Shown here piece by piece: positions 4,993-43,925 of a DNA stretch of 64,000 bases. The first letter of the stretch is position 1. Every line of letters begins with the position of its first letter. The stretch spans positions 43,628 to 107,627 of the forward strand of contig JAKAOA010000001.1 in NCBI GenBank assembly GCA_021823405.1. Direction: 5' to 3'. A program made the position numbers and the translations under genes. A model generated the notes under the pieces. The model worked only from the letters and a program-made list of their open reading frames with translations, was not told where the DNA came from and ran no database searches. This DNA comes from Bacteroidota bacterium. Lineage in GTDB: Bacteria > Bacteroidota > Bacteroidia > JABEUT01.

Positions 4993-5045
4993 TAAATGAC
5001 TTGTTAAAACTATTATCTTTGCACGCTATTTTTAAAAATATTGTT

Positions 5046-5118
5046 GATTCCGTAGCTCAGTTGGTAGAGCACAACACTTTTAATGTTGGGGTCGCGGGTT
5101 CGAGCCCCGCCGGGATCA
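5046..5118 (+). tRNA. tRNA-Lys (anticodon TTT)
   Basis: Cloverleaf: acceptor gattccg/cgggatc (one G-U), D-arm gctcagttggtagagc, anticodon arm caaca-cTTTtaa-tgttg, T-arm gcgggttcgagccccgc, discriminator A. CCA is not encoded. Confidence 0.85.
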
Positions 5119-5336
5119 CAGTATTGCGCAGCATAAATCGCTTCGCCTCATTAGCTAAAACACGCGCATATCTGTTCGCTCATTTCAGCATTACTTTTCT
5201 TCGCTGCAATTGCTATATTTTTTTGGATATCTTTATGAACCTAAAAAGGTTGTTAATATCAGCTTGGTCATTAGTAATGGAGTTTCATTCCTTAACGATC
5301 AAAAATTATTAAAACGATTAATTATATTTAAGGAGT

Positions 5337-18071: not shown

Positions 18072-19037
18072 CTACCAGCCGTTTTCCGCAATATCCCTTG
18101 CATGATAGGTGATGATCAGACCGGCGCCGGCTCTTACAAAGGCATGCATGTTTTCCATTACCACGCTCTTTTCATCTATCCATTTACGCCCCGCTGCCGC
18201 TTTAACCATCGAATATTCGCCGGAGACATTATAGCAAGCAATGGGTAACCGGGTGTTATGCCGGAGCCGGTTTACAACATCGAGGTATGCAAGCGCCGGC
18301 TTTACCATCAATACGTCTGCGCCTTCGGCTTCATCCAGAGCTGCTTCCTTCATTGCTTCGTTGGGGTTGCGATAATCCATCTGATATGATTTCCTGTCGC
18401 CAAATTGCGGACTGGAATCGGCGGCTTCGCGAAATGGTCCGTAATATGCTGATGCGAACTTAATGGAGTATGCCATTATCGGGGTATCGGTCAGGTCGGC
18501 ATCATCGAGCGCTTTGCGTATAACCCCCACCCTGCCGTCCATCATGTCGGAAGGCGCCACCATATCGGCTCCCGCTTCGGCGTGAACGAGAGCCATACGG
18601 GCTAATGAAGTAACGGATAAATCATTGTGTACACGTCCATTTTTTACAATGCCGCAATGACCGTGCGAGGTATATGCACAAAGGCATACATCGGTAATGA
18701 CATAGAGTTCGTCTTTGAAATTCTTTTTAAGCAACCGGGTTGCCTGCGCTACCACTGTATCCTTATGGTAGGCAGATTTTCCTTCAGGGCTTTTTTCCTC
18801 GCCCGACCCGAAGAGGAGAATTTTATTAATCCCCTTTTTTAAACCCTTTTCAACATCTTTCATAAGAGTATCGGGGGAGAAATGGTTTATTCCGGGCATG
18901 GAAGATATAGGCGAAATGAGGTTTTTCCCTTTTTCAACAAAATACGGATATATAAGCATATCCTTGTGAAATCGGACTTCGGCTACCATATCGCGTAGGG
19001 CGGCGCTTATTCGGAGACGGCGCGGGCGGATTAACAT
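18072..19037 (-). CDS. hemB: Porphobilinogen synthase (delta-aminolevulinate dehydratase)
   Basis: MLIRPRRLR..., the active-site region around SDMMDGRV, and ...YNVSGEYSM. 321 aa. Confidence 0.9.
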   Translation of the reverse strand: MLIRPRRLRISAALRDMVAEVRFHKDMLIYPYFVEKGKNLISPISSMPGINHFSPDTLMKDVEKGLKKGINKILLFGSGEEKSPEGKSAYHKDTVVAQATRLLKKNFKDELYVITDVCLCAYTSHGHCGIVKNGRVHNDLSVTSLARMALVHAEAGADMVAPSDMMDGRVGVIRKALDDADLTDTPIMAYSIKFASAYYGPFREAADSSPQFGDRKSYQMDYRNPNEAMKEAALDEAEGADVLMVKPALAYLDVVNRLRHNTRLPIACYNVSGEYSMVKAAAGRKWIDEKSVVMENMHAFVRAGAGLIITYHARDIAENGW

Positions 19038-19138
19038 TACATCTAATAATTAAATATCTGACATTCAGAACTGAAAATTGCAAGCAAAGATACTACTGAA
19101 AAGATACCACGAATCTCATACAAATTTAATAAAAAATC

Positions 19139-20710
19139 CTACACACTATATACTGCCTGAAGCAGTCCGATTTCATCAAAAGAAGGGACAAGGAAAACGG
19201 AAGGGTGGTTCGCCATTTTTAAGGCATGGGCGGTAGCATTGCCCATGGCGATTATTTTCTGCTCCTTTTTCAGTTTCTTCTTCTCTAAAAACGCCTCCAC
19301 GTTAGACGGGCTTGTAAATAACATAATATCGGATTCGGGTATTCCTTCAACGGGTTTATGTATTGTTTCATAAACGGGTAAATCAATCACTTGGGTTTTA
19401 TTTACGAATTGTTGTTGTATCGTTCTCATACTTTCCTTCGCCTGCGGAAAAAGCGCCTGTCCTGATTTTACAAGGTTTGCAAACTGTTTTCCTACTAATC
19501 TGGTATCGGTAGAGACGCCAATAAAGTCGGCTCTTCTGCCAAATGTTCTTATCGCTTCCGCGGTTGATTTTGCAATTGCTCCAATTCGGATATTCCCAAT
19601 TTCCGGCTTTTGGTCGAAGAAATAGGTAACCGCATGTTTGCTGGAAAAAAAGAGCCATTCGGCTGCCGGTAATTTTCCGAACGGAATGGGCTTAAACTCA
19701 ATAAATGCCCTGCCGCTTACTGTATATCCGTTGGCTATCAGCGAACGGCTGAAAAAATCATTCTCCCTTATATCTCGTGTTATGAAGACCGAAGCGCTTT
19801 TTCTCGAATTAATCTTCTCGCATACTTTTTGTTCCCAGCCCTGTGGCATAGCGGTCTGAAAATAAAAGTAGCGCGGATAAGAGTTCACATCCCGGGAGTA
19901 GGCGGCGAAAATCTTAAAAAAGGGCTTATCGAATTCGTCTGAATGCTTTTCGCAATATACGCCGAGAGGCAGGTTACAGCCGCCCTGAAACATACCGAAT
20001 ATCTTGCGTTCCGCAAAAACCGTCTCCTGTACTTCAGGATGATTGATTTTATCCAGACATTGCTGTAAATCTGCATCACCTTCGCGGATCTGCAACGCAA
20101 GCACACCTTGCGCCGGCGCCGGCACTAACTCGTGAGGTGCAAATTTAAAGGAATGAAATCCGGAAACATCCAGTCCCAATCGCTCGGCAGCAGCCGACGC
20201 CAGGAAGATAGCATCATACTTTTTATCCTGAAGTTTTTTTAGTCGCGTTTGAACGTTGCCCCGTAACTCTTTAATCTCCACATCGGGTCTGAATGCCTTA
20301 ATCTGAACGTTGCGTCGAGCAGCGGATGTGCCAATTACAGCTTTCTTCTTAATGGCAAATTTCATTGTTTCATCTACCGAATCCTTATTAATAAGCAACA
20401 GTTCCGATGGGTCTTCACGGTATGAAACCGCTCCTACCTTGAGTCCTTTAACGGGTGTAGTCGGCAAATCCTTATAGGAATGTACGGCAAGGTCGATTTC
20501 CTTATTAAGGAGCGCTTCTTCAATTTCCTTTGTAAAAAAACCCTGTCCTTCTATTGCAGAAAATCTTTGTTCGGGCTGTAAATCGCCTTTGGTTTTAATT
20601 ATTTTTACTTCTATCCTATTCCCGGTTTTAAGCAGTTCCTTTTTGATGAAATTTGCCTGCCACAGCGCAAGTTCGCTGCCTCGCGAGCCGATGATTATTT
20701 TTTTTGCCAT
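19139..20710 (-). CDS. hemC: Bifunctional hydroxymethylbilane synthase / uroporphyrinogen-III synthase (HemC-HemD fusion)
   Basis: N-terminal HemC (IIIGSRGSELALWQA, about 300 aa) fused to a C-terminal HemD-like domain (VFITRD...GAIAKSTAEA...). Confidence 0.85.
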   Translation of the reverse strand: MAKKIIIGSRGSELALWQANFIKKELLKTGNRIEVKIIKTKGDLQPEQRFSAIEGQGFFTKEIEEALLNKEIDLAVHSYKDLPTTPVKGLKVGAVSYREDPSELLLINKDSVDETMKFAIKKKAVIGTSAARRNVQIKAFRPDVEIKELRGNVQTRLKKLQDKKYDAIFLASAAAERLGLDVSGFHSFKFAPHELVPAPAQGVLALQIREGDADLQQCLDKINHPEVQETVFAERKIFGMFQGGCNLPLGVYCEKHSDEFDKPFFKIFAAYSRDVNSYPRYFYFQTAMPQGWEQKVCEKINSRKSASVFITRDIRENDFFSRSLIANGYTVSGRAFIEFKPIPFGKLPAAEWLFFSSKHAVTYFFDQKPEIGNIRIGAIAKSTAEAIRTFGRRADFIGVSTDTRLVGKQFANLVKSGQALFPQAKESMRTIQQQFVNKTQVIDLPVYETIHKPVEGIPESDIMLFTSPSNVEAFLEKKKLKKEQKIIAMGNATAHALKMANHPSVFLVPSFDEIGLLQAVYSV

Positions 20711-27920: not shown

Positions 27921-28589
27921 TTACTCGGCGTTTTTTCTCCCATGTTTAAGCACCCTCGCTTCGGAATAAAATATTATCTCTTCAGCTATATTTTTCATGT
28001 GGTCGCCTACGCGTTCTATCATCTTCATTATACTTAATAACTGTATTGCCTGTGAAAGATGTTCGGCGTTACCTTTTGCATATTCTTCAGCAGTAATAAC
28101 GGCATGCTCGGTTATTTCGTCAATTTTCTTATCTCTTCCGAAGATTTCCCTCGCAAGCAAAGTATCTTCCTTCTCAAAAGCGATGAGCAGGCACTGGAAC
28201 ATCTCAAAACCAGTATCGAAAGCGCCCTTAATGTCAGTTTTGTTAAGAAATCCCTCGTCAAACCTATTACTATAGATTGATACAGTGCGGCCTATTCCGT
28301 CAGCCAAATCGCCTATGCGTTCCAAATTCATGTTTATTTTGAGAGCGGAGAGAACAAATCGCAGATCTACTGCCACGGGAGTAAAAAGAGCTAAAATAGT
28401 TTCACAGCGGCTGTCTATCTGTAATTCCTTTGCATTCACCAATTTTTCGGTATGTTCCAATTCTTTTAGAACTGCCTTATTGTTTTCGAGCAACGCCTTT
28501 TGCGCTCTGGAAAATTGACCATGCGTAAGGTTAAACATTTGCAGAAGTTCGGTTCTCAATGAGTCCAATTCGGCTTGAAGATGTTCCAT
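27921..28589 (-). CDS. phoU: Phosphate signalling complex protein PhoU
   Basis: Two PhoU repeats (ERIGD.A..I / ERVGDH.KNIAE). 222 aa. Downstream of pstB. Confidence 0.9.
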   Translation of the reverse strand: MEHLQAELDSLRTELLQMFNLTHGQFSRAQKALLENNKAVLKELEHTEKLVNAKELQIDSRCETILALFTPVAVDLRFVLSALKINMNLERIGDLADGIGRTVSIYSNRFDEGFLNKTDIKGAFDTGFEMFQCLLIAFEKEDTLLAREIFGRDKKIDEITEHAVITAEEYAKGNAEHLSQAIQLLSIMKMIERVGDHMKNIAEEIIFYSEARVLKHGRKNAE

Positions 28590-28668
28590 TTTATATGGTT
28601 AAGTTAGATGCTTTTTGTTTATATAAGTTCTTAAATAAGCGAAAATTGATAAGTTGAATTCCCCGATA

Positions 28669-29427
28669 TTAACCGAACCTACCTGTAATGTAGTTCTGCG
28701 TTTTTTCGTTCTTAGGATTGGTAAACACCTTTTTGGTATCGTCATATTCAAGAAGTTCGCCAAGATAAAAAAATGCGGTCATATCACTGATTCGCGCCGC
28801 CTGCTGCATATTATGGGTAACAATTACAAGGGTATAATTAGCTTTAAGTTCATACAGCAGGTCTTCTATTTTTGATGTGGAAAGCGGGTCTAATGCCGAG
28901 GTGGGCTCATCTAAAAGTATAACTTCCGGTTTCATGGCGATTGCTCGTGCAAGGCATAACCGCTGCTGCTGGCCTCCGGAGAGCGAGGTGCTCCTTACGT
29001 GCAGTTTGTCCTTAACCTCATCCCAAAGTGCAACCTTCTTCAGCGCATCCTCTGTTATCTCTTCCTTTTCGAGTTTCTTAAGTTTAATACCATTGAGCAT
29101 AAAACCGGACAGAACATTTTCCCGTATACTCATAGTTGGGAAAGGGTTCGGGCGTTGAAATACCATGCCTACATTTCGCCGCAACTGCATTGCATCCATT
29201 TCATATACATCTTCGTAGTGTAGCCGTATCTTCCCTTCTACTTTGGCTTCGGGTGTAAGGTCGTGCATACGGTTTATGGCGCGTAATATGGTCGTTTTCC
29301 CGCAACCTGACGGTCCCATGAAAGCGGTTACCCGTTTTTCAGGAATATCCATATTAATTCCCTTCAGGACTAGAGTATTTCCGAAAGATACTTTAAGGTT
29401 TTCAGTTCTTAAAATTGCACTCTCCAT
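28669..29427 (-). CDS. pstB: Phosphate ABC transporter ATP-binding protein
   Basis: Walker [10 protein letters not shown], signature LSGGQQQRL, Walker [12 protein letters not shown]. 252 aa. Confidence 0.9.
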
Positions 29428-30266
29428 TTTCTTTCAAATATTTTAATTACAGCATTCAGCAGAATAATAAACACTACAAGTATTAATGAACCGCCCCATG
29501 CTATACGGTGCCAGTCGTTATATGGACTTGATGCATAAGTAAAAATCACCTTAGGTATGGTGTCCACGGGTTTACGGGGGTCAAAGATAAGTTCAGGATT
29601 TCCGAACGCCGTGAACAACAGGGGAGCCACCTCGCCAAAAATACGTGCGATACCGATAATACAACCTGTAAAAATACCGCCTAATCCGCCAGGTAATACA
29701 ATTTTCATGGTAGTTTTAAAATAGGAGGCGCCCAATGCCAGCGATGCTTCTTTTAAAGTGCGCGGGATAAGCACCAGAGTTTCTTCAGTGTTTTTTATGA
29801 TTGGAGGGAGCATCATTATGGCAAGGGCGATGCTACCTGAAAAGGCAGAAAATTTACCTGTCGGTTTTACTATCCATACATATATAATAATACCTATTAC
29901 TATGGAAGGTATGCCCTGCAATACATCTACCGCTACTGCGAGTCGTTCGGTTAGTTTTCTGCCTCTGTTTTCGGCAAGATAAATACCAACGGATACGCCA
30001 AGCGGAATTGCAATAACAGCCGCTATAGATACCACCATTATACTCCCCACTATAGCATTAAGAATACCGCCGCCCGTTTCCCCGACAGGTTTTGGGTTTT
30101 GACTGAATAATGCCCAGTTAATGCTTGAAATTCCCTCCTTGAATAAATAATAAAGTATAATGGTAACTACCAGAAGGCAGCTTATGGTAAGGCACCAGAT
30201 GAAAGCGGAGAATATCCGGTCTTTTGCACGTCTTCGTTTCAGCCCCTGAATATCCCGCGGCATCAT
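29409..30266 (-). CDS. pstA: Phosphate ABC transporter permease PstA
   Basis: 6 TM helices with an EAA-like loop. Operon position between pstC and pstB. Confidence 0.85.
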
Positions 30267-31150
30267 AAGGAATAGCTTATTTTCTTTATTACTAACCTGC
30301 CCAGCAGGTTAATTATAGTGGTAATTATAAAAAGCATTAAACCGATTTCTATGAGCGAACTCAAATATACATCCCCTATGGCTTCGGTAAACTCATTAGC
30401 TATAACACTAGCCATAGTATATGCAGGACTGAATATATTCCGCGGCAATTCGGGTGAATTTCCTATTAAAATAGTTACTGCCATCGTTTCGCCCAGCGCC
30501 CTGCCCAGTGATAACAGGAACCCTGCTGAAATTCCCGAAATATTGGAAGGAAGAATAATTCTGGTAATTACTTCTGACCGAGTGCTTCCAAGGGCATACG
30601 CCGCTTCTTTTAAAGTTGTAGGAGTCATGCTTATTACCTGTCTCATAAGCGAAACCGAATAGGGAATAAGCATAATGGAAAGTACTATAGATGCCGTTAA
30701 TATGCCTACCCCGGGCGCAGGCATGTGCATTTTCAATTCAAATTTACCCACCAGCGGCGCAATAGTATATAATCCCCAAAAACCGTAAACTACCGTGGGG
30801 ATGGCAGCCAGTATTTCAATGGCGTTTCTGAAAATATCGGTAATAGCGCCTTTCGGGAAGTACTCGCCCAGGAAAAGAGCCGCAGCAATGGAAAACGGGA
30901 TTGAAATGAGAAGCGACAAAAAAGATGTAATAATAGTTCCTGCCAGAAAGGGGAGCATACCGAAGTGGTTTGCCACGGGGTCCCATGTTTTTCCCCACAA
31001 AAAGCCGATTCCATTGGCTTTAATGGCAGGCCATGACGAAACAGTAAGCGTAATAAAGAAAATAAGCAGCAATATCATGGTTAGAATTGATACAAAACTT
31101 AACCATCTTACAAAAATTTTATTTTCCAGTACCAGCCAGCGATTCTTCAT
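30263..31150 (-). CDS. pstC: Phosphate ABC transporter permease PstC
   Basis: 6 TM helices, conserved EAA..LG loop. 4-nt overlap with pstA. Confidence 0.85.
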   Translation of the reverse strand: MKNRWLVLENKIFVRWLSFVSILTMILLLIFFITLTVSSWPAIKANGIGFLWGKTWDPVANHFGMLPFLAGTIITSFLSLLISIPFSIAAALFLGEYFPKGAITDIFRNAIEILAAIPTVVYGFWGLYTIAPLVGKFELKMHMPAPGVGILTASIVLSIMLIPYSVSLMRQVISMTPTTLKEAAYALGSTRSEVITRIILPSNISGISAGFLLSLGRALGETMAVTILIGNSPELPRNIFSPAYTMASVIANEFTEAIGDVYLSSLIEIGLMLFIITTIINLLGRLVIKKISYSL

Positions 31151-31195
31151 CTTATCAAGGTGCGTTCCATTTCTTCAAATATATTTTGCAAAGGT

Positions 31196-31225
31196 AAAAA
31201 AAGGGAGCGCCCGCCGGCTCTCCCT
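31196..31225 (-). terminator. Intra-operon attenuating terminator between pstS and pstC
   Basis: On the minus strand the GC-rich hairpin AGGGAGAGCCGG...CGCTCCCT is followed by T7. Confidence 0.6.
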
Positions 31226-31288
31226 TTACCAAAACACAACCTCACATGAAAAAAAGCGGGCAGTGAGCACGTTAAAAACATACCGTGC

Positions 31289-32365
31289 CTATGGATTTTG
31301 CAACACCGGTTGTCCATCAAAGGTTACGGACTTAAGAATTGCTTCATCAGCGGCAACTGCCTTAGGCGGCAGCGGCGCGTATGTTAAAGGTTTAGCATAT
31401 TGTTGCCCGTCGTGTACCATCCACCACAGTTCTTTCAGGAGATTAGTCACCTTGTCCTTCGATCGGTCTCCATATTTTTGCTCCTTATAGAGTATTATCC
31501 AGGTAAAACTTGCAATAGGATACGCCTGGTCAACATTTGAGTTTGTTATACTTATACGGGTATCGGCGGGTATATCGCCGTTTGCGCACAAACTGGCGGA
31601 TTCAAGGGATGGCGTTATATAATTCCCTGCGGAATTCTTTACTTGTGCAAAAGGCATATTATTTTCAATGGCGTAAGCCAACTCTATATAACCTACCGCT
31701 CCGGGCGTTTGCTTTATTACACCGGCAACCCCTTCGTTGCCTTTACCGCCTAATTCACCATCTGGCCAATTTACCGAAGTGCCTTTACCAACTTTGCTTT
31801 GCCAATCGCTGCTGATTTTAGAGAGGTAATCGGTCCATATAAATGAAGTTCCACTGCCATCGCTCCGGTGTACTACAGTTATATCCTCATCGGGTAGCTG
31901 GGCATCGGGGTTTTCTGCCCTAATTTTATCATCGTTCCATTTGGTGATGGTTCTCAAATAAATTCCGGCGATAATATCGGGTGTTACCTTTAAAGTCGGG
32001 TTACCGGGCAGGTTGTAGCTTAATACTACCGCACCCACGCAGGTAGGGAATTCCACCAATGTCGCAGGGGCTTTACTTAATTGGTCATCGCTTAAGTAGG
32101 CATCTGATGCGCCAAAGTCCACTGTTTTATTCATGATCTGTTTTATGCCGCCGCCCGAGCCGATGGATTGATAGTTTGTCTGAATACTATCTAATTTCCC
32201 ATATTCGGAGAACATTTTAGAATAAAGCGGGTAAACGAAGGTAGAACCGGCTCCGAGCAATTGTCTGTCTTCGGGATTATTCTTATCGCCGCCGCCTGTA
32301 CATGAGGTAAAGCCAACAGATATAACGAGTAGTGCGGCAATTATTTTTGATTTTGTTGTTTTCAT
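31289..32365 (-). CDS. pstS: Phosphate-binding protein PstS (lipoprotein)
   Basis: Start placed at MKTTKSKIIAALLVISVGFTSC (signal + lipobox) rather than the longer ORF-track start. PBP fold with SGGSG and GSG phosphate-binding loops. Confidence 0.85.
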   Translation of the reverse strand: MKTTKSKIIAALLVISVGFTSCTGGGDKNNPEDRQLLGAGSTFVYPLYSKMFSEYGKLDSIQTNYQSIGSGGGIKQIMNKTVDFGASDAYLSDDQLSKAPATLVEFPTCVGAVVLSYNLPGNPTLKVTPDIIAGIYLRTITKWNDDKIRAENPDAQLPDEDITVVHRSDGSGTSFIWTDYLSKISSDWQSKVGKGTSVNWPDGELGGKGNEGVAGVIKQTPGAVGYIELAYAIENNMPFAQVKNSAGNYITPSLESASLCANGDIPADTRISITNSNVDQAYPIASFTWIILYKEQKYGDRSKDKVTNLLKELWWMVHDGQQYAKPLTYAPLPPKAVAADEAILKSVTFDGQPVLQNP

Positions 32366-32395
32366 ATATATCCTATTTTGAGTATTGATGTTGAA

Positions 32396-32429
32396 TTTAA
32401 AAAAAGTTATGGGCAGTTCGCCCATAACT
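32396..32429 (-). terminator. Rho-independent terminator between the porin gene and pstS
   Basis: On the minus strand AGTTATGGGC-gaact-GCCCATAACT (perfect 10 bp stem) is followed by T7. Confidence 0.8.
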
Positions 32430-32439
32430 TTCTATTTAT

Positions 32440-33975
32440 TTAGAATGCGAAGAGGAAGGTTACACGGTAAAGTATATAGGAATCGCTGCCCAGATTGCCT
32501 GAACCGAATCCGTTTTTGATACCATAATACCAAACATTAGGCATGATATGATATTTCTTGTCTTTGGTAGGTGTCCAGTCAACTCCGGCATTGATGAAGG
32601 TTTCGGTATATGTATTCTGCCCCGATGCCAGATTAGGCGCCATGCTTAAAAACGTTTCATTCGGACGGTTATTGATTACGCTGCTGTTATCTAAACTTGT
32701 CAGATTACTGTTTGGATTGTAATTATAGCTATAATTAACATCCGGATTGAACAAATCGAATCTGGCAAAAAGGTTTAGGCAATTTTGAATAATGGTAGCA
32801 TGGGCAAAAATGGATAGCGCAGATTCCCCTCCATTGGCGGTATCTACTATTGGTTTTCCCGGATTTGCAGCATTCCATATTGTTTCTACCTCACCGTTAA
32901 TATATGTTTGTCTGTCATATTCAAAGCCGACGCCGAACCATTTGGAATTATATACGGCATATCCCTTAAGTGTATACTGGGCGTGCTGGTATCCCTTTGA
33001 TGTGCCATAATAGAAGTTGCCATAGTTTATATAGTCGCCATAACCACCGATAGTGAGAGCTCCGTTTAAAGTATTGAAAAACACATGAAGACGGAACTTT
33101 TTAGCTGCATCAGTGGTATAGTTGTAAGGGTTTAGCAGTATTGAACCGCTGGGGCTTAATGAAGAACCGGCTAAGGTTTGAGCAATTGCATTAGTGAAAC
33201 CCGGAACAGGAGAATTCGCCGCATTATCGCCTATCATGAAGCTATAGCCAAAAAAAGAAGGAAATTTGGTTGAATCCGCTCCTTTAAAAGAAGCGATTTT
33301 ACCGCCGAGATAAACTCCCATGTCCGATGAAGCGTCCATACCGTGTATATCAAGTATTGTCTTTTCTACGGAACGATAAGTACAAAGGGGCTCTGTATTG
33401 TATGGGTCGGCGAAGGAATTGGTTGCCATTTGTCCTACTTTAAGGTCGCTGCCTTTAAATATATTACGGTACTGGATATAAGCGTATTTCATGTACATAA
33501 CGCGGTTATCATTCACGTCCTGATCACCTTCGTAAGCCAATAACACGCATCCGCTTAATCTACTGTTAGGGTGATAATCGTAGCCCAGATACGCCCTTCG
33601 GATTTCCATCGCGTTGGGGTGGGTGGTCTGTGCTGTTTTTGCCCCATTAGGGGCGCCGCCCGCATTAGGGGTTCCTACTCCCTTGTATTGTTGCTTTGTT
33701 CCTCTGCCGGCCGAGTCGCCTTGCTGCATCCAGGCATAGTCGCCGAATACGTAACCCCAGAGCCCGCCGTTTTTATTCTGCGACAAGCCCATTCCGTTCG
33801 TCAGCTCCGAGATGGCATTATTGGACAGTTGACTTGGGTTTGCCGGGGCAGGAGCCGTTACCTGGTCTTGCGCAATAGTCAGCTGGCAGGTAAGAAGTGA
33901 AAAACCAAGGATTACCATAGTTTTAACAGCTTTCCTTGTTACATTTTGAATTTTTGTAATTTGCTTTGTTTTCAT
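32440..33975 (-). CDS. Outer-membrane beta-barrel porin, putatively phosphate-selective (OprO/P-like role)
   Basis: Signal peptide, amphipathic beta-strand pattern, C-terminal ...FLFAF (terminal Phe), Gly/Asn/Tyr-rich. Located at the head of the pst locus under the candidate Pho box. Confidence 0.5.
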   Translation of the reverse strand: MKTKQITKIQNVTRKAVKTMVILGFSLLTCQLTIAQDQVTAPAPANPSQLSNNAISELTNGMGLSQNKNGGLWGYVFGDYAWMQQGDSAGRGTKQQYKGVGTPNAGGAPNGAKTAQTTHPNAMEIRRAYLGYDYHPNSRLSGCVLLAYEGDQDVNDNRVMYMKYAYIQYRNIFKGSDLKVGQMATNSFADPYNTEPLCTYRSVEKTILDIHGMDASSDMGVYLGGKIASFKGADSTKFPSFFGYSFMIGDNAANSPVPGFTNAIAQTLAGSSLSPSGSILLNPYNYTTDAAKKFRLHVFFNTLNGALTIGGYGDYINYGNFYYGTSKGYQHAQYTLKGYAVYNSKWFGVGFEYDRQTYINGEVETIWNAANPGKPIVDTANGGESALSIFAHATIIQNCLNLFARFDLFNPDVNYSYNYNPNSNLTSLDNSSVINNRPNETFLSMAPNLASGQNTYTETFINAGVDWTPTKDKKYHIMPNVWYYGIKNGFGSGNLGSDSYILYRVTFLFAF

Positions 33976-34070
33976 AAATTAAATGGTTTTGGTTTATGAT
34001 TCTGCCCGGTTTGTTATTTTTTCGGACGGTGCAAAAGTGAAGGTTGAACATTTGGTAAATATGATGCAAA

Positions 34071-34119
34071 TGTTAAGGAATTGTTAAGCATTTTCAGGTA
34101 TAGTTAAGTATTTGTTATG
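34071..34119. promoter_or_regulatory. Candidate Pho-box-like operator: TGTTAAG direct repeats on an 11-bp register in the porin-pst / phoB divergent promoter
   Basis: TGTTAAG (34071-34077), gaat spacer, TGTTAAG (34082-34088), then aGTTAAG (34102-34108) and TGTTAtG (34113-34119). A 7+4 architecture as for PhoB boxes. Confidence 0.4.
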
Positions 34120-34181
34120 ACTAAATTTTGTTGCTTATTTAACCTAACTTTGCAGCCAGTTGTAAATTAGAATTCTAAAGC

Positions 34182-34862
34182 ATGGATAAAATCAAAATAT
34201 TATTGGCAGACGACGAACCGGATGTACTGGATTTTCTAACCTTTAACCTTCAAAGGGAGGGATATGAGGTAGTTACAGCCATCAATGGCAGAGAAGCCAT
34301 AAAACTTGCAAAAAAGGAAACGCCTAATCTGATAATTCTGGATGTGATGATGCCCGAAATGGACGGCATTGAGGCATGCAAAGAACTGCGCACGATGCCC
34401 GAATGCAAAAATGCACATATCATTTTCCTTACAGCGCGTACCGAAGATTATTCCCAGATTGCAGGACTGGATTCAGGCGCCGATGACTATGTTTCAAAGC
34501 CAATAAAACCTCGGGTTCTGATAAGCCGTATAAATGCGCTGATGCGCCGAAAGAACACTGAAGAAGAGCCATCAGGCATAATTGATATCGGCGGCGGAAT
34601 GACGATTGATAAAGCGGGATACCAAGTAAAAATAAACGGCGCTCAACTTTCACTTCCGCGTAAGGAATTTGAGTTGCTGAATCTCCTTGCCTCAAAGCCG
34701 GGTAAGGTATTCAGCCGTGATGATATATTACACAAAATCTGGGGCGAGGATGTAGTTGTAGGCGACCGTACCATTGACGTTCATATTCGTAAATTGAGAC
34801 AGAAACTGGGAGAAGAGAAAATAAAGACCATAAAAGGCATCGGTTATAAATTTGAATTCTGA
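34182..34862 (+). CDS. phoB: OmpR/PhoB-family response regulator
   Basis: Receiver (LLADDEPD...IILDVMMPEMDG) plus winged-helix trans_reg_C. Adjacent to pst and followed by a histidine kinase. Confidence 0.75.
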   Translation: MDKIKILLADDEPDVLDFLTFNLQREGYEVVTAINGREAIKLAKKETPNLIILDVMMPEMDGIEACKELRTMPECKNAHIIFLTARTEDYSQIAGLDSGADDYVSKPIKPRVLISRINALMRRKNTEEEPSGIIDIGGGMTIDKAGYQVKINGAQLSLPRKEFELLNLLASKPGKVFSRDDILHKIWGEDVVVGDRTIDVHIRKLRQKLGEEKIKTIKGIGYKFEF

Positions 34863-34946
34863 AGGTCAATCACCAACCTTCTCTATTTATGCTGCCCGTA
34901 TGAGATTTTACAACCGTGTGCCACCTTGGCTATAACGGTTGCGCAA

Positions 34947-35037
34947 AGCAAAATACCTATATGAGCAGTTATACCGATGCTATGAATTTGAGAATTTTAA
35001 CAACCCGATGCTATCGGGTTCAATTGCAGTCGGTATA
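34947..35037. repeat. Long (~91 bp) form of the REP/MITE-like element (palindrome core 35002-35020) between phoB and phoR
   Basis: Aligns base-for-base with 46417-46507 (gcaaaatac...tgaatttg...caacccgat(a)gctatcgggttcaattg..gtcggtata). Confidence 0.75.
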
Positions 35038-35155
35038 CCTAACGTAATTCCATACCATTTTTAAATGTTTACTGCAACTATTGTTGAACGCATTTGTATT
35101 GATTACTGTGTAATATTTTCTATTTTAGTATCTTAGCTCTCCATAGAATACAGCT

Positions 35156-36169
35156 TTGAAAAAGGACTCTATCATTTTCTCCGTCGGATGTGCCCTGCTT
35201 ATTACAGGCATTACCTATTTTATTTCCATTCTATTACCCGCCCGATTACATCCGCACCCGATTTGGTTTGCCGCATTATCCGCGATAAGTATTGTTGCCG
35301 CCACAGTTGCATATAATATTATGGTCAGCAGGAAAATAAAGCGAATTATAGAAATTGTTACAGGCGAAAATGATTTAAACAATGCATCACTCGGCGTTCT
35401 TGAAGAATCAATCCGCAAGTTACTCCGCGAAAGAAAGGATGAACTTGAGAAAATACAAAAACTTGAAAGGCACAGACGAGAGTATCTTGGAAATATTTCA
35501 CATGAAATGAAAACCCCGTTATTTCATATACAGGGGTATGTTTCTACCCTTGCCGAGAATAATATAGACGACCCTGCCATGGTAAAAAGATACCTCGAAA
35601 GAACAGGTAAGAGTATAGAACGCCTTATCCATATTCTGGAAGACCTTGATACAATTTCACAGCTTGAAAGTGAAGAGATAAAGAGTGAAATGGAACCATT
35701 CGATATTGTAGAGCTGTGCCGTGAGGCGCTCGAATCGGAAGAGACGAATGCTCTTAAAAAAAATATTGCGCTTATTCTGATGAACGAAAACGGAAAAATG
35801 GCAGTTAACGGAGATAGGTTTCGTATCAGACAAGTGCTGGTAAATCTTGTGGTAAACTCTATTCGATATGGGAAGAAGGATGGCGAAACCCGGATTCGTC
35901 TTAAGGACGATGGCGATTCGGTACTGGTGGAGGTTGCCGATAACGGCATAGGCATAGCGCCAGAACATCTTCCTCGGCTCTTTGAGCGCTTTTACAGAGT
36001 AGATAAAGACCGCTCAAGACAACATGGAGGCACAGGGCTGGGCTTATCAATTGTAAAACATATTCTCGAAGCGCATCATCAGACCATTCAAGTAATGAGC
36101 ACTCCCGGGGTAGGTTCGGTATTTTTCTTCCATCTGAAAAAAGCCCCACATTACAGCAGCTTCAGTTAG
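35156..36169 (+). CDS. phoR: Sensor histidine kinase (PhoR-like)
   Basis: Two N-terminal TM helices, H-box SHEMKTPL, N/G1/G2 boxes (DNGIGI, GGTGLGLSIV). Confidence 0.75.
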   Translation: MKKDSIIFSVGCALLITGITYFISILLPARLHPHPIWFAALSAISIVAATVAYNIMVSRKIKRIIEIVTGENDLNNASLGVLEESIRKLLRERKDELEKIQKLERHRREYLGNISHEMKTPLFHIQGYVSTLAENNIDDPAMVKRYLERTGKSIERLIHILEDLDTISQLESEEIKSEMEPFDIVELCREALESEETNALKKNIALILMNENGKMAVNGDRFRIRQVLVNLVVNSIRYGKKDGETRIRLKDDGDSVLVEVADNGIGIAPEHLPRLFERFYRVDKDRSRQHGGTGLGLSIVKHILEAHHQTIQVMSTPGVGSVFFFHLKKAPHYSSFS

Positions 36170-36241: not shown

Positions 36242-36961
36242 TTATTTATTGTAGAACATTCTCTCCTTGAATTTTGCCCTGTAAACCATTCCAAGGGTAA
36301 TCTGTTTCGGTTTCCCATCCTCGGCTGTTATCCCTTTAAGGGTGAGCAGGTCATACTCTACTTCATGCACCGCTTCAAGAGATACCGCTTGCGATTTGTT
36401 AACTTGAATCAGGGATGGGGAATTGGCAGTGAGCAAATCCATCTTACAATTCATAAGCGTATATTTCTCGCCGTTTTTCAACCACACCTGTTTGTTGCGC
36501 GGGTCAATTTCATCGGTCGATACAAATATAATATCAACCAGCCGGATATTAACTTTCCTTCGCGACTCCGCTACATTGAATAACTCATATTCCTTTTTTT
36601 CGACCAGCAGTTCATGCGCCTTTTGAAATGCTTTGTAAAGCCGATCCTTCATTATAGGTTTGGTTACTATATCAATGGGTGAAATATCGATGGCATCTCT
36701 GAATTTGTGATCTGTGCCGGAGATGAAAATGACCGGCTTATCGTTCAGTACCTGCGCGAGTGTAGTTCCATCTATACCCGGCATCTGAATATCCAACAGA
36801 CATAAATCAAAAATGAGCTCCGGAGCTTGTTTCAAAAATTCGGTTGGGTCGGTAAAAGTATCCTTCACTTCAACTATCGGCGACTCTTTACATAGCTGGA
36901 GCAATGAAGAAAGAAAGTATTCATCATCATCTACCGCTACTGTCCGTAATTTTTTTATCAT
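36242..36961 (-). CDS. LytTR-family response regulator (receiver + LytTR DNA-binding domain)
   Basis: Receiver with DDDE acidic pocket and LLDIQMPGIDG. C-terminal LytTR-like domain. No cognate kinase in the operon. Confidence 0.7.
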   Translation of the reverse strand: MIKKLRTVAVDDDEYFLSSLLQLCKESPIVEVKDTFTDPTEFLKQAPELIFDLCLLDIQMPGIDGTTLAQVLNDKPVIFISGTDHKFRDAIDISPIDIVTKPIMKDRLYKAFQKAHELLVEKKEYELFNVAESRRKVNIRLVDIIFVSTDEIDPRNKQVWLKNGEKYTLMNCKMDLLTANSPSLIQVNKSQAVSLEAVHEVEYDLLTLKGITAEDGKPKQITLGMVYRAKFKERMFYNK

Positions 36962-37067
36962 TTTATAATATTGCGAATGGCTTCCTGCATTTATTAAAGC
37001 GGTAATTGTTCGCTAAGAACATATATAGTGCAAATCAGGGGTACGGGATTCTGAAATTCGTTTGAAT

Positions 37068-37745
37068 TTACTTTAAAGTACTACCGGCTATTCCGAAATA
37101 AAACAGTACCGGAAACGATGAAAAACCAAGCCAGATAAAAACTGCGAACCCTCTGGAGGCCATTTCCCAAAAGGATTCATAGCTTTTATTATTAAAGCCG
37201 AGCGTGTGAATGGCAGAGCGCAAGGCGTGACTTAAATGAAAGGCAAGAAATGTTACGCCAATTATATACAAACCTGCGTAAAGCGGATTTTGAAAAGCAT
37301 CCTTAACCATATCTGCAAGCTTAACTCCGGCGGGTAAGCCGGTAATACGGTAGGGTAAAAAAAACTGATACAGGTGTCCGATAATAAAAAACAGGACAAA
37401 TGAACCGGTAATACCCATGTTACGCGAAAACCACGATGCGCCGCCAGAAGTAGATGACGCCTGATACTTAACAGGCCGCGCTTTGCTATTTTGTGCAGTC
37501 AGTTGCACAGCAGTAAAAACGTGTATCAGAATCGCCGCAAAAAGAAAAATCTCTATTACGCGTATGATGATATTGTGAACCGCTGAATGAGAATAGTCGT
37601 TGAACGCGACTCCCTGGTCGTTGAAGTAGAGTAACAGGTTGCCATACAAATGCTCGAGAAGAAAAACAATCAGGAACAATCCGGTGCAAGCCATTACCAA
37701 TTTTCTGCCAATGGAAGAAGTAAATGTGACCTTAAGCGTATTCAT
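37068..37745 (-). CDS. Succinate dehydrogenase/fumarate reductase cytochrome b subunit, b558 family (SdhC-like), orphan
   Basis: 5 TM helices. SSIGRKLVMACTGLFLIVFLLEHLYGNL N-terminus and a conserved His pattern (EHL, LIHVF, IGHLYQF, LAFHLSHAL) match the Bacillus/Bacteroides-type SdhC. Confidence 0.6.
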   Translation of the reverse strand: MNTLKVTFTSSIGRKLVMACTGLFLIVFLLEHLYGNLLLYFNDQGVAFNDYSHSAVHNIIIRVIEIFLFAAILIHVFTAVQLTAQNSKARPVKYQASSTSGGASWFSRNMGITGSFVLFFIIGHLYQFFLPYRITGLPAGVKLADMVKDAFQNPLYAGLYIIGVTFLAFHLSHALRSAIHTLGFNNKSYESFWEMASRGFAVFIWLGFSSFPVLFYFGIAGSTLK

Positions 37746-38012
37746 GTTTTATAGGGATAAAAATTAGATTTCAGGTCGTAATTCGGGTTCAAATTTATGG
37801 TTTTTTACTGATTCGAAGGGCAAAATAAAAAGTCATTCTACCTGGAATGTGCCATAGCTCTGCATTATCAATCTAATCATCTCAAGCTATGCTATAAATA
37901 GCTGATAGCAAGCATTTAACAAAATTAATAAAAGATTTTTGCCATTCTGATTTGGAAATTCATTAAACATTTATAATTTTGTAAGGTCAAAATCATAAAT
38001 AAACCTAATATT

Positions 38013-38912
38013 ATGAAAATCAAACGTTATTTAATTATTGCCGGATTTGGTCTGGCTCTTACCGGTATTACATTCATGGGCTGTAAAAAAAATGATACCA
38101 CAACCAGTTCACCCACTGACATTACAGCAGCCGAAGATGATAACAATGCCACTTTTGCCATTCAGGACTCTAAAAATATTGCCGATGGCGCAGCAAAATC
38201 AAAAGCCGTAGAACGCGTTATGAAATCTCCGTGCGCCACCTGGTCATTACATAAGGATACCATAAATCACACCAGCGATTCGTTACTGGACATTAGTTTT
38301 GGCAATACGCCCTGCCAGTGTCTTGATAACAGATATAGAGCCGGACATATACTTGTATGGTATGCCGGAATACATTGCTTCACCACTAACGGCGATTCAA
38401 CGGTAATGGGCTTTAGTAATTATAGTTTTGGCAATTCCCCAAGCAGTATGATTGGCGTAACCGGTACCAGAACCTTAATAAACCTTAGTAAAGATACCGG
38501 TAACGGTTTATATTCCTGGAAGTTCCATGCCTCGCTTACTTTAACTTACCCCGGCAACGGCGGTACGGCAACCTGGAATTCAACCCGCAATATAACACTC
38601 ACTCCATTTAATGGTACAAACTATTTTGTAGTTACGGGAAGTGCGAACGGTAGATGCAGAAGTGGCGCTAATTATAATATTACAATAAATAATAATTATC
38701 CTCTTTATGTACAACCGCCCGTATACTCGAATTATATCTATCAGTCAACTCCATGCTATTTTATTGAGGCAGGCGAGCTTAGCATAACTGTCTCCACCTT
38801 TAGCTACCCCATATATGTAAGTTTTGGCAGCGGGGGTAATATGCCGCCTGTATGCGAAAATAGCGCAACAGCAACCATTAACGGTATATCGTACCAGTTT
38901 ACTCAACCGTAA
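38013..38912 (+). CDS. Hypothetical lipoprotein
   Basis: Signal peptide plus lipobox (FMGC). Ser/Thr/Asn/Gly-rich, Cys-containing mature domain. Terminator downstream. Confidence 0.45.
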   Translation: MKIKRYLIIAGFGLALTGITFMGCKKNDTTTSSPTDITAAEDDNNATFAIQDSKNIADGAAKSKAVERVMKSPCATWSLHKDTINHTSDSLLDISFGNTPCQCLDNRYRAGHILVWYAGIHCFTTNGDSTVMGFSNYSFGNSPSSMIGVTGTRTLINLSKDTGNGLYSWKFHASLTLTYPGNGGTATWNSTRNITLTPFNGTNYFVVTGSANGRCRSGANYNITINNNYPLYVQPPVYSNYIYQSTPCYFIEAGELSITVSTFSYPIYVSFGSGGNMPPVCENSATATINGISYQFTQP

Positions 38913-39534: not shown

Positions 39535-40845
39535 TCATTCCAAACCCAGATATACATTAAGTACCTTTTTCTTCATCAGGAAATCGTATTTAGCGCTTGC
39601 CATATCAATTTCCGCCTGTACTTTTTTGTTCTTGGCATCGTTATAGGTCAGCGAATTATTCATTCCAAGCCGGAACTTTTCCGACTCGTATTTGAAATTC
39701 TCTTCAGCATAGCGCAGCTGTTCTTTAGCTGCCGCATACTTCCTTTCGCCTGCAATGATATCGTGATAGGCGCTTTCTATTTTTTTAATGAGGTCCTTCT
39801 CGGCGATACTTTCATCGAGCCGGGTGTTCCGGTAATTTATTTCGGCATTAATTATCGAATATTGATTTGTATAATTATTAAAAATTGGAAGTGACAGGTT
39901 GAACCCAAGCGTAACTGTACGATTATCGAATATTTGCGTTTCGATGCTCTGCGGATTCAGATTGGATGTGGTAGTACCCAGAGAGGGCGAAAAAGACAGA
40001 GTGGGAATTGTACCCGCCCTTTGAATAGAGGCATTAAGTTCTGCTATTCGCGTATTGTTCGAAGCTATTTTTAATTCCGGGGAGTTATTTCTTGCCAATT
40101 CAATGGTCTGGTCAAGAGTTAGGGTGTAGGTAATCTGCGCGCTGTCGTCGGCGACAGGCGCAATTCTGAAATTGGTATCCGCCTCAACCTCTAAGGTCTG
40201 CCGGAGCGCCAGGTAATCGTTATCAAGCGTATTTTGAGCGTTTACCAGATTGAATTTATCGCTGGAAAGCTGCGATTGCATATTATACAAGTCCCCGGCG
40301 GCAATACTTTTTGCGGCATAGAGATTTTTACTGCGGTCAACCTGCAGCTGCGATTGACGAACGGTTTGTTCCGCCTTGTCAACGGTTTCCCGGTCGAGTA
40401 ATATCTGAAAATATTGCTGCATGGTTTGCACCTTAATATCGTTGACCGATTTTTTGTAATTATTATCGCTTAATTCTATTCCTTCCCGTTTTTCTTTAAG
40501 TGTATTTGGTTTTCGCATTCCTTCATAAAGGTTAATAGATGAATTAATGTTTTCGCTCGTGCCTACGTTGGCTGTATTTACAAGTTCGTTGAGAGATGGT
40601 ATAACGTATATACCCCACGTTTCACCCGAAAAAACAGATGCGTTCAATGAGGGTATGTATTTCATTTTGGCTTGTTTGTAATCCGCCTGACTTACAATTT
40701 TATTATTTGCCGCTTTTGCCAAAGTCAGGTTACGCCTTAACGCAGTATCAATACATTGTTCGAGCGTCCAGCTGTTCTGTGCTTTCAAGATGCCGGAGAA
40801 TAAAGTGAGGCAAATGATAAGGAGCGTAAAAGGGTGAATTTTCAT
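39535..40845 (-). CDS. TolC-family outer-membrane efflux protein
   Basis: Signal peptide and two tandem OEP repeats, about 436 aa. Terminal gene of the efflux operon. Confidence 0.8.
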   Translation of the reverse strand: MKIHPFTLLIICLTLFSGILKAQNSWTLEQCIDTALRRNLTLAKAANNKIVSQADYKQAKMKYIPSLNASVFSGETWGIYVIPSLNELVNTANVGTSENINSSINLYEGMRKPNTLKEKREGIELSDNNYKKSVNDIKVQTMQQYFQILLDRETVDKAEQTVRQSQLQVDRSKNLYAAKSIAAGDLYNMQSQLSSDKFNLVNAQNTLDNDYLALRQTLEVEADTNFRIAPVADDSAQITYTLTLDQTIELARNNSPELKIASNNTRIAELNASIQRAGTIPTLSFSPSLGTTTSNLNPQSIETQIFDNRTVTLGFNLSLPIFNNYTNQYSIINAEINYRNTRLDESIAEKDLIKKIESAYHDIIAGERKYAAAKEQLRYAEENFKYESEKFRLGMNNSLTYNDAKNKKVQAEIDMASAKYDFLMKKKVLNVYLGLE

Positions 40846-40888
40846 AATAGAACCATTGTAGGGGAGGTTAATAGGAAGTTATACCTGT

Positions 40889-41986
40889 TCATAAAGAATT
40901 TCCGTCAATTTCGGGGGACTTTATTTCGTCGTCTTTTGTTAAGCCCGACAGAACCTCAATATTAATTCCATCGGAAATGCCGAGTGTGATATACTGTTTG
41001 CGGAAAGCGCCATTTTTCCCTTTCACCTGAACAAAGGATGAGTCGCCCGAAAAACTAACATCGCCTTCTTTAATGGCTAATACATTCATCTTCTTCTCAA
41101 GAAGGATGGATGCATCGGCGCTGTAACCGGCTCTTATTATTTTGCCTTCCTTAGGTATTACAGCCGCTGAAAAGTCGAATTTTACAGAACCTTGCGTATC
41201 GGAGCCCTGCGGCGCTATCATCTCTATTACCGCATCGAAGGTATCTTTCTGTATGGCGCCTATGGTAAGTTCTATTTTCATACCTTCTTTCAAATAGGAA
41301 ACATCAGTTTCGGATATTTTACCGTTGAAAATCATCTGATTCATATCGGCAAGGGTAAATAAAGTTGTTCCCTCGCTGAAGGTGCTTCTTCCCATTACCG
41401 AACTGCCCACTTTTATAGGTATGGTTAATACAGTGCCATCGCAGGTTGCAAAAATAATGTTAGAAGACATGGTTCCGGAGTCCTTCGCCGCCCCTACCTT
41501 TATTACCTGAAGCCGGTTCTGCGCCGATTTCAAATCTTCCGCCTTCAACTCATAATCCTTCTTTGCATTGATAAGGTCGGTCTCTGCAATGGCTCCAACG
41601 CTAAATAGCTTCTTTTGTCTTTCCAGGTCTTGCAAAGACGCTTCTTCATTTATCCTCGCTGAAACCACCGCAGATTCGGCATTGTTCAGATTTTCCAGAT
41701 CCGGAATAAGTTTCAGCTTAGCCAATGGCTGTCCCTTTTTTACCTTATCTCCCACATTCACCTCTATTGCAGATACAATGCCTGAAATAGCCGGTTTTAT
41801 ATCAATTTCTTCTCTCGGAGAAATGGTGCCTGCAACGGTAACCTTACGTTCTATTGTTGTAATGAATGGCTTGTTTGGCTTCAAGGCATTTTTAACCGAA
41901 GCACTGCTGCTTAATTTGCCCTTGAAGAGAAAAGGAATGGCGACTATAACTCCCAGTACGGCAATGATAATTATAACCTTTTTCAT
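40889..41986 (-). CDS. Efflux transporter periplasmic adaptor (HlyD/MacA family)
   Basis: N-terminal TM, coiled-coil hairpin, lipoyl and beta-barrel domains. Sits between the MacB-like permease and TolC. Confidence 0.8.
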   Translation of the reverse strand: MKKVIIIIAVLGVIVAIPFLFKGKLSSSASVKNALKPNKPFITTIERKVTVAGTISPREEIDIKPAISGIVSAIEVNVGDKVKKGQPLAKLKLIPDLENLNNAESAVVSARINEEASLQDLERQKKLFSVGAIAETDLINAKKDYELKAEDLKSAQNRLQVIKVGAAKDSGTMSSNIIFATCDGTVLTIPIKVGSSVMGRSTFSEGTTLFTLADMNQMIFNGKISETDVSYLKEGMKIELTIGAIQKDTFDAVIEMIAPQGSDTQGSVKFDFSAAVIPKEGKIIRAGYSADASILLEKKMNVLAIKEGDVSFSGDSSFVQVKGKNGAFRKQYITLGISDGINIEVLSGLTKDDEIKSPEIDGNSL

Positions 41987-42008
41987 TTTTTATGATTTTT
42001 TGAATTTG

Positions 42009-43247
42009 TTATTCGTATCGTAATGCCTCAATTGGGCTGATTTTCGATGCATTTCTGGCTGGTATGAATCCCGCAAGTGCGCCTGCAACGACCAATATTA
42101 TTATGGCGGAAATGGCCACATTCATATCTACTTCGGGGTGCTGAAAATAGGTGACCGATTTTGTTAATTTACCTATAAGCGATAGCGCACCGGAAGCAAT
42201 TACAAGACCAACAAAACCCGATACAGTGGTTATCACTATTGCTTCCTGAATTACAAGTGAGATAATGGACGAGGGAACTGCTCCAAGCGCTTTTCTTATT
42301 CCTATTTCCTTCGTTCGTTCTTTTACGGTTACAAGCATAATGTTGCCCACGCCTACAACCCCGCCAACCAATGTACTGCAACCGATTATCCATAAAAAAA
42401 TTCCAACGCCCGAAAAAAGCTGTCCTACCACTTTTTCATTACGGGCTCTGTTATAAACATATAATGCATCGTCATCCTTCGGGTCAAAGGAGTATTTACG
42501 CGCAAGCCACTTCTTTATCTTATGTCCGGCTGATTCTGCATCGGCGCCATCTTCCATAACCGCGGTAAAGTGTTCTATCTTCCCGTCCGGTTCAAATTCC
42601 GCCTTATAAACCGAGAAAGGGAGATATATAGTTGATTCGCTTCCGAAGTTGAATATTCTGGTAGTGTCCTCCGCCACAAGCCCGACTACCTTATAGTAAT
42701 TGCCCTTAATCGTAATATACTCTCCGATAGGATCCTTCCCGTGAAATAACTGGTCCTCTATTTTTTTACTTATCACCGCTACTTTTCTCTCCTGCTCCAT
42801 GTCAAGCGGGTCGAGCCAGCGTCCTTCGCCAATATGGAGATATTCTATCTGAGAAAATTCGGGGAAAACAGCCCTTACATCATATACGCCGCTGTTGTTG
42901 CCATAAGATATAGTGCCGGCGTTGGTCACATTGGCTTCGGGCGAAATATATTTTATTACTGGTATATCGGCTTTAAGGTCTGCCATATCATCGCCGGTTA
43001 CTTGTATCGAACGCCCCACGTTTAATCCTTTGTAAGGGATGGTAGTTTTACCGCCCCAGAATTCTACGGCATTGCTTGCAGAGCCGGCAAGTTGATTATT
43101 TACGCCATTTTTAAAGCCCTTACCAACGCAAAGTAACAATACAAGCATAAAAATGCCCCATGATACTCCAAAACCGGTAAGAAAGGTGCGCAACTTATGG
43201 GCTTTTATTGACTGATATATCTCTTTCCAGACCTCTTTCTTAAACAT
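42009..43247 (-). CDS. ABC transporter permease, MacB/FtsX-like
   Basis: N-terminal TM, a large periplasmic domain, and a C-terminal FtsX 3-TM bundle. 412 aa. Confidence 0.8.
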   Translation of the reverse strand: MFKKEVWKEIYQSIKAHKLRTFLTGFGVSWGIFMLVLLLCVGKGFKNGVNNQLAGSASNAVEFWGGKTTIPYKGLNVGRSIQVTGDDMADLKADIPVIKYISPEANVTNAGTISYGNNSGVYDVRAVFPEFSQIEYLHIGEGRWLDPLDMEQERKVAVISKKIEDQLFHGKDPIGEYITIKGNYYKVVGLVAEDTTRIFNFGSESTIYLPFSVYKAEFEPDGKIEHFTAVMEDGADAESAGHKIKKWLARKYSFDPKDDDALYVYNRARNEKVVGQLFSGVGIFLWIIGCSTLVGGVVGVGNIMLVTVKERTKEIGIRKALGAVPSSIISLVIQEAIVITTVSGFVGLVIASGALSLIGKLTKSVTYFQHPEVDMNVAISAIIILVVAGALAGFIPARNASKISPIEALRYE

Positions 43248-43262
43248 TAATAATCCTTTTTT

Positions 43263-43925
43263 TTAGTTTGTAATTATTCCGTCCTTTATGGTTATTATCC
43301 TCTCCGTTTGTTCAGCTATATCCTTTTCGTGGGTGATAATAATGATAGTAACGCCCTGATTATGTATTGTCTTGAACAAATCCATAATATCCTGCGACGA
43401 TTTACTGTCAAGGTTACCGGTCGGTTCGTCTGCCAGTATCATTTTGGGCTGGGTAACCAATGCTCTCGCTATGGCTACCCGTTGTTTCTGTCCGCCTGAT
43501 AGCTCACTGGGCAAATGGTGCGCCCATTCACTTATGCCTACACGTTCCAGATAGTTGCGCGCCTTCTTATTTCTTTCTTTGGTTCGGACTCCCTGGTAGT
43601 ACAATGGCAGTGCAACGTTTTCGAGCGCATTTTTATAAGACAGCAGGTTATATGATTGGAAGACAAACCCTATAAACCTGTTCCTGTAATGAGCGGCTTT
43701 CTTTTCCGAAAGATTCTTAATCAGCGTATCTTCAATGTAGTATTCGCCGGAATCGTATTGGTCTAAAATACCCAGAATATTCAGAAGCGTTGATTTTCCG
43801 GAGCCGGATGCGCCCATAATGGAAACCATCTCGCCCTTCTGAACCTCCAAATTAATGCCTTTAAGAACCTGAAGCCGTTCTTTACCTACCGGGTACGATT
43901 TATATATGTTAGAAAGCCGTATCAA
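43263..43925 (-). CDS. ABC transporter ATP-binding protein (MacB/LolD-type)
   Basis: Walker [10 protein letters not shown], signature LSGGQKQRV, Walker [12 protein letters not shown]. Confidence 0.9.

Follow-up and report, generated by a model that had tools for sequence, protein, structure and literature searches.

The 64,000-nucleotide stretch analysed here, referred to as the window, comes from the genome of a Bacteroidota bacterium (GCA_021823405.1, contig JAKAOA010000001.1, positions 43,628 to 107,627) and possesses at positions 36242 to 37745 a gene for the membrane anchor of succinate dehydrogenase (sdhC) with a response regulator gene directly downstream of it. The sdhC gene (37068..37745, minus strand) codes for a 225-aa product corresponding to the single-subunit dihaem cytochrome b anchor of a type B succinate:quinone oxidoreductase / fumarate reductase. 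The regulator gene (36242..36961, minus strand) codes for a protein of 239 aa with a receiver domain and a diverged LytTR-type output domain. Between them lies a spacer of 106 bp (36962..37067, minus strand), which is proposed below to be a rearrangement junction. A first-pass annotation of this DNA had reported both open reading frames (ORFs), their common strand and the gap of 106 bp, and all of these were confirmed.

The assignment of the 225-aa product to the SdhC family was likewise upheld. The protein scores 160.9 bits against TIGR02046 (NCBIfam sdhC_b558_fam, curated cutoff 96), with profile positions 1-210 of 212 being covered, and lies slightly under the gathering score of Pfam Sdh_cyt (23.6 vs 25.8), a shorter domain model which covers only part of the sdhC_b558_fam subfamily. 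Five hydrophobic segments are apparent in a Kyte-Doolittle scan (approximately residues 16-41, 59-77, 112-134, 154-175, and 201-219), the N-terminal motif TSSIGRKLVMACTGLFLIVFLLEHLYGNL is present, and six of its eight histidines (H32, H53, H75, H124, H170, and H173) are invariant in an alignment with 15 homologs. The only sequence match in the PDB is SdhC of Chloroflexus aurantiacus (9lay_C, E-value 5.9e-21), with an alignment that runs from end to end and places H32, H75, H124, and H170 of the window protein opposite His-C32, C81, C135, and C188. In C. aurantiacus, these four residues are the axial ligands of the distal haem bD and the proximal haem bP in a five-helix type B anchor (PMC12663545). 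Their counterparts in the window protein are predicted to be the axial ligands of two haems b. Because of the TIGR02046 score, the alignment of the haem ligands with 9lay_C, the invariant histidines and the five hydrophobic segments, the family call is sound and the ORF codes for a genuine b558-family SdhC. Like the other type B anchors, examples being Bacillus subtilis SdhC, Wolinella succinogenes FrdC, C. aurantiacus SdhC (PDB 9LAY), and Bacteroides thetaiotaomicron FrdC, it is made up of a single polypeptide of some 225 aa that contains five hydrophobic segments. It shares the four axial His positions with the C. aurantiacus protein but differs from it at the proximal quinone site, where Asp-C118 and Tyr-C119 (PMC12663545) align with Ser107 and Arg108 of the window protein. 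As a protein it is a standard type B dihaem anchor, and what is unusual is its gene order, as the window sdhC lies outside any sdhCAB or frdCAB operon, the order frdCAB being that found in B. thetaiotaomicron (PMC5210497).

The 239-aa regulator is clearly matched by the Pfam domain Response_reg (58.4 bits vs a cutoff of 30.2), and its receiver residues D11, D12, D57, and K101 are invariant among 21 homologs, because of which the protein is predicted to be phosphorylatable and to need a kinase. With regard to the LytTR label given to it in the first-pass annotation, LytTR matches were found in 13 of the 21 members of the family (E-value ≤ 0.01, the best being 9.2e-8), but this protein's own match to LytTR (PF04397, residues 137-234, E-value 0.003) remains below threshold at 18.2 bits vs a gathering score of 22.6. 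A profile of the regulator family searched against the PDB matched receiver domains only and no solved LytTR domain. The protein is accordingly described here as diverged LytTR-type, with the caveat that the label for this particular protein rests on a sub-threshold match. With the LytTR/AlgR-family regulators (AgrA, ComE, BlpR, LytR, and BtsR) it shares the conserved Asp/Lys receiver and a C-terminal region of roughly 100 aa, recognized as LytTR in 13 of the 21 family members. It differs from them in that no cognate kinase adjoins it in the window and in that the kinases next to its orthologs are REC-HisKA-HATPase_c hybrids and PAS kinases, not those of the LytS/HPK10 type.

No gene for sdhA or sdhB was identified in the 64-kb window by Pfam scans covering each of its 54 non-overlapping ORFs with 90 aa or more, which agrees with their reported absence beside sdhC. 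Only one histidine kinase is encoded in the window, namely a convergent PhoR-like gene (35156..36169, plus strand) with HisKA and HATPase_c domains and with PnpS and PhoR as its best NCBIfam matches. It is paired with a phoB gene upstream of it (34182-34862, plus strand) and is regarded as context and not as the partner of the 239-aa regulator. The description of a same-strand regulator lacking a cognate kinase nearby is therefore also accurate.

The order of genes following sdhC was compared among homologs of the window protein, the closest of which (88, 87, 84, 78, 73, 71, 67% identity, etc.) all belong to uncultured Bacteroidia. At 31-55% SdhC identity, the canonical order sdhC-sdhA-sdhB was found in all 17 genome loci, which come from more distant Bacteroidota, and in a sample of metagenome loci anchored on sdhB and having at least 2.3 kb of upstream sequence, sdhA lies directly upstream of sdhB in 49 of 50, so that the arrangement in the window was rightly called atypical. 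In the 67-73% range, 4/4 loci (L021, L023, L024, and L025) have sdhA directly behind sdhC but lack a subsequent sdhB, continuing instead with a convergent crp-like gene or a gene for a CLC channel. At 78-100% identity, represented by the window, L001 (87%), and L022 (78%), sdhC is followed by the 239-aa regulator and sdhA is missing. These three loci also have their flanks in common, with a divergent gene for a 299-aa protein and a comEA-like gene on one side and the convergent phoR and phoB genes on the other. The sdhC-regulator pair is consequently restricted to relatives with at least 78% SdhC identity which share this wider synteny, is absent from the 4/4 and 17/17 more distant loci, and its adjacency is not kept beyond the range of general synteny. 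Since gene order shifts along the series of SdhC identity, the operon appears to have dissolved in two steps in this lineage. Among the 50 sdhB loci there is only one clearly orphan sdhB (L045 3974-4744, JGI Ga0206855_10306). This locus does not come from the window genome, but its tetranucleotide composition is nearest to loci of the window's relatives (L031, L030, L023, and L021), and it is consistent with sdhB standing alone in the clade.

The regulator has a gene order of its own outside these close relatives. Its orthologs with 65-67% identity lie directly downstream of two-component kinases. In L028, the gene upstream of the ortholog codes for a 373-aa REC-HisKA-HATPase_c hybrid, while L030/L031 have a gene for a 374-aa hybrid first, then those for a 669-aa PAS kinase and a 147-aa receiver protein, and lastly the regulator. 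A homolog with 57% identity is preceded by a PAS kinase and a GerE regulator. No sdhC was found near the regulator in any of these loci (L028, L030/L031, and that of the 57% homolog). It is worth mentioning that in L028 (6862-7916; also L029 1697-1953) the ortholog with 67% identity is directly followed by five to six tandem genes for peptides of 48-49 aa. The leader of each peptide is of the double-glycine type (MFKKxKKxAEKSKIEKFS..KLNEKELKKVVGG), and its core (xINYNxSKSNxGN) is short and rich in Asn/Ser. Genes for such double-glycine peptides are controlled by classical LytTR regulators, and by analogy the arrangement suggests that this regulator family may control secreted peptides of this kind. 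A search for such peptide genes in the window and the remaining loci gave none.

The missing sdhA was searched for with SdhA of the relative with 73% SdhC identity, the match being chosen by a pattern of sources like that of the window SdhC. The SdhA obtained (P0146) is present in the NCBI assembly GCA_027320225.1 and in Logan run SRR13206618, a run that contains the exact window SdhC as well. Its gene is an orphan (L026 5099-9917, DAHVLS010000002.1 of that assembly; also L027), having neither sdhC nor sdhB near it in L026 or L027, and genes for a 432-aa REC-kinase and a 416-aa kinase lie before it on the same strand, with a convergent recQ gene after it. Over its full length, the 432-aa protein has 49-51% identity to the hybrids of L028 (L028_373) and L030 (L030_374). 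Identity of the 416-aa protein to the 669-aa kinase of L030 (L030_669) is 54% for the kinase core and 29% for the N-terminal region, and it is a shortened form of this PAS kinase with about 240 middle residues gone. In their order, the kinases before the orphan sdhA are collinear with those found before the regulator orthologs. A hairpin (GGCTGAATT-ACAA-AATTCAGCC) lies right after the kinase stop codon in the L026/L027 locus. With regard to composition, the best tetranucleotide match of L026 is the window itself (r = 0.959), whereas other foreign loci reach at most 0.914 and 16-kb chunks of the window give 0.963-0.981 with the rest of the window. Because of the shared run and this tetranucleotide similarity, we infer that the sdhA locus and the window derive from the same genome or population.

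Taken together, these gene orders suggest a reciprocal exchange, in which [kinases -> regulator] and [sdhC -> sdhA] became [kinases -> sdhA] and [sdhC -> regulator] as two products of one event. The explanation we consider likely is that the window sdhC is a normal and probably the only anchor of complex II, stranded by a stepwise break-up of sdhCAB in this lineage of uncultured Bacteroidia, and that its adjacency to the regulator is a rearrangement junction. In such a course of events, sdhB would have departed first, leaving sdhC-sdhA. Breaks would then have occurred between sdhC and sdhA and between the kinase cluster and the LytTR-type regulator, and the ends would have been joined as sdhC to regulator in the window and as kinases to sdhA on another contig. 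Exactly these two same-strand junctions would result if one inversion took place between two loci of opposite orientation, and such a proposed single inversion is the simplest account of them. At the level of the proteins, SdhC would bind two haems b in the membrane through H32/H124 and H75/H170, dock SdhB and SdhA encoded elsewhere, and exchange electrons with menaquinone, so that complex II would be assembled from the products of dispersed genes, while the likely kinases of the regulator would now be encoded beside sdhA. Such a graded series of intact, partly and fully dispersed loci with genes still under selection is known from operon disruption by chromosomal rearrangement, in keeping with the evolutionary instability of operons for multi-subunit enzymes. 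The case differs in that both reciprocal junctions (sdhC|regulator and kinases|sdhA) were apparently recovered, which is uncommon but does not represent a new mechanism. A search of the literature on dispersed sdh genes in Bacteroidetes found nothing relevant.

A number of observations weigh against this explanation. The placement of the sdhA locus in the same genome is indirect, relying on co-occurrence in a run and on tetranucleotide similarity, and the sdhB of the window organism was not found in a scan of JGI metagenomes. What lies upstream of sdhC and downstream of the regulator does not recur in L021, L028, or L030. As flanking genes thus differ among the relatives, more than one rearrangement must be assumed, and the model of a single inversion is a simplification. 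No repeat common to both junction spacers was detected, there being only a match of 9 nt which is not meaningful. The kinase similarities of 49-54% could also reflect paralogy, but orthology is favored because the order of the kinases is conserved. Finally, a second, complete sdhCAB operon elsewhere in the genome would make the window copy a spare one, a prospect that is improbable for the reasons given below.

The first-pass annotation had offered two functions for the arrangement, neither of which was borne out. One was a quinone or redox-sensing module, in which the SdhC-like dihaem protein would act as a sensor and signal to the LytTR regulator without involvement of SdhA and SdhB. The adjacency of the genes, their common strand and the lack of a cognate kinase nearby are all that speak for it, and this possibility is considered very remote. 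SdhC carries neither an additional domain nor any motif of a kinase or of phosphotransfer, and it is an ordinary ortholog of the SdhC proteins (67-73% identity) whose genes are linked to sdhA, with the same residues invariant. The regulator, with its phospho-acceptor pocket intact, would still need a kinase, and its orthologs are found behind kinases and never behind sdhC. Conservation of the pair in relatives had been named beforehand as a test of this proposal, and by this test the module is refuted, the pair having been found only in the close syntenic relatives L001 and L022, with sdhC being followed by sdhA at 67-73% identity. The other proposal was a spare or decaying anchor, meaning that a complete sdhCAB is present elsewhere and that the window copy is a redundant paralog or a relic. 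Two complex II enzymes are indeed present in some bacteria. However, strong purifying selection acts on the stranded sdhC, with a nonsynonymous divergence (dN) of 0.083 between the window and L001 at saturated synonymous divergence (dS), and it is better conserved than its neighbors (87% identity to L001 vs 78% for the regulator, 74% for the PhoR-like kinase, and 84% for PhoB). All its haem ligands are intact, and its identity to the sdhA-linked SdhC proteins falls smoothly along the series given above, as would be the case for an ortholog. In addition, the sdhA of the same run is itself an orphan with kinase genes and no sdhC upstream. Such an sdhA requires an anchor encoded elsewhere, and the genome probably has no second sdhC. 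The spare anchor is accordingly regarded as improbable, and the window sdhC most likely codes for an ordinary anchor with a quinone site which is probably the sole anchor of complex II.

Another possibility is compatible with the origin of the pair by break-up of sdhCAB and adds a functional consequence to it, namely that the two genes now form a rewired unit. The regulator would have lost its own promoter and be transcribed by read-through from that of sdhC, the kinases would be transcribed with sdhA, and expression of the two-component system would thereby be coupled to that of complex II. The genes lie on the same strand with a gap of 106 bp, in which no terminator-like hairpin was found by scanning and no stable RNA fold relative to shuffled controls (z = +0.64). 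TAnnTTTG is the Bacteroidetes-type -7 promoter consensus. A pattern search for this box found no exact match in the gap and two upstream of sdhC, one being TAAATTTG (37790..37797, minus strand), a candidate sdhC promoter by consensus match alone, 45 nt upstream of the ATG, and the other lying at 37920-37927 (minus strand). Read-through into the regulator from an sdhC promoter is thus possible, and in the window, L001, and L022 the arrangement has outlasted the saturation of synonymous sites. Nevertheless, the promoter and terminator calls are consensus scans and promoters of Bacteroidetes tolerate mismatches, the spacer is weakly conserved among these three loci, and persistence may merely reflect the general synteny of close relatives. 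At 106 bp, the spacer is also far longer than those of relatives between sdhC and sdhA in the ancestral-type arrangement (22-58 bp) and between kinase and regulator (31-42 bp), which leaves space for a promoter of its own. A rewired unit is therefore viewed as a tentative proposal that is rather less probable than not. Considerably more speculative, and quite doubtful, is the extension that the exchange coupled a peptide-signaling-type two-component system to complex II expression, as the regulator came to lie after the sdhC promoter and the kinases before sdhA, and that selection may have kept this coupling in a genus-level clade. Short palindromes are present in the sdhC-regulator spacers of L001 (ATGTGATTGCAT, approximately 730-745) and L022 (ATGTAATTACAT, approximately 5495-5510) without a counterpart in the window; these could represent an operator or a chance match.

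With the pair explained as a rearrangement junction, an orphan anchor beside a kinase-less regulator ceases to be a lead toward a new redox sensor, and the stepwise dissolution of a near-universal sdhCAB operon is documented in one lineage of uncultured Bacteroidia. The case also calls for caution with annotation through guilt by association and with calls of pathway completeness in metagenome-assembled genomes, because complex II could be rated incomplete in this case by binning or annotation pipelines that expect to find the sdhCAB genes side by side.

The neighborhood of the pair contains a number of other features. On the downstream side, a complete Pho cluster extends over 27921-36169, with genes for PhoU, PstB, PstA, PstC, PstS, and a 511-aa porin-like protein on the minus strand, then PhoB and the PhoR-like kinase on the plus strand, so that the PhoB-PhoR pair faces the PstSCAB-PhoU genes (27921-32425, minus strand). 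The PhoR-like kinase has 337 aa and is without the PAS region of classical PhoR. Divergent from sdhC lies the gene for the 299-aa hypothetical protein (38013..38912, plus strand), which has a lipoprotein-like N-terminus and no match in Pfam or NCBIfam, and it is a conserved neighbor of the stranded sdhC in close relatives, a gene of the same length being found at the equivalent position in L019, L020, and L022. The window also has genes for haem biosynthesis on the minus strand (18072-20710), namely hemB (ALAD, 321 aa) and a fused hemC-hemD (porphobilinogen deaminase and uroporphyrinogen-III synthase, 523 aa), whose presence is consistent with a supply of haem. A tRNA-Lys(UUU) at 5046-5119 (plus strand) is the sole RNA gene detected in the window with Rfam, and a 103-aa ORF overlapping it (5001-5312) is presumably spurious. 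Beyond the 299-aa gene, a MacAB-TolC-like efflux set (39535-43925, minus strand) codes for an ABC ATPase (220 aa), a MacB/FtsX permease (412 aa), a membrane-fusion protein (365 aa), and an outer-membrane factor (436 aa), and this set is kept beside the sdhC neighborhood in L019 and L020.

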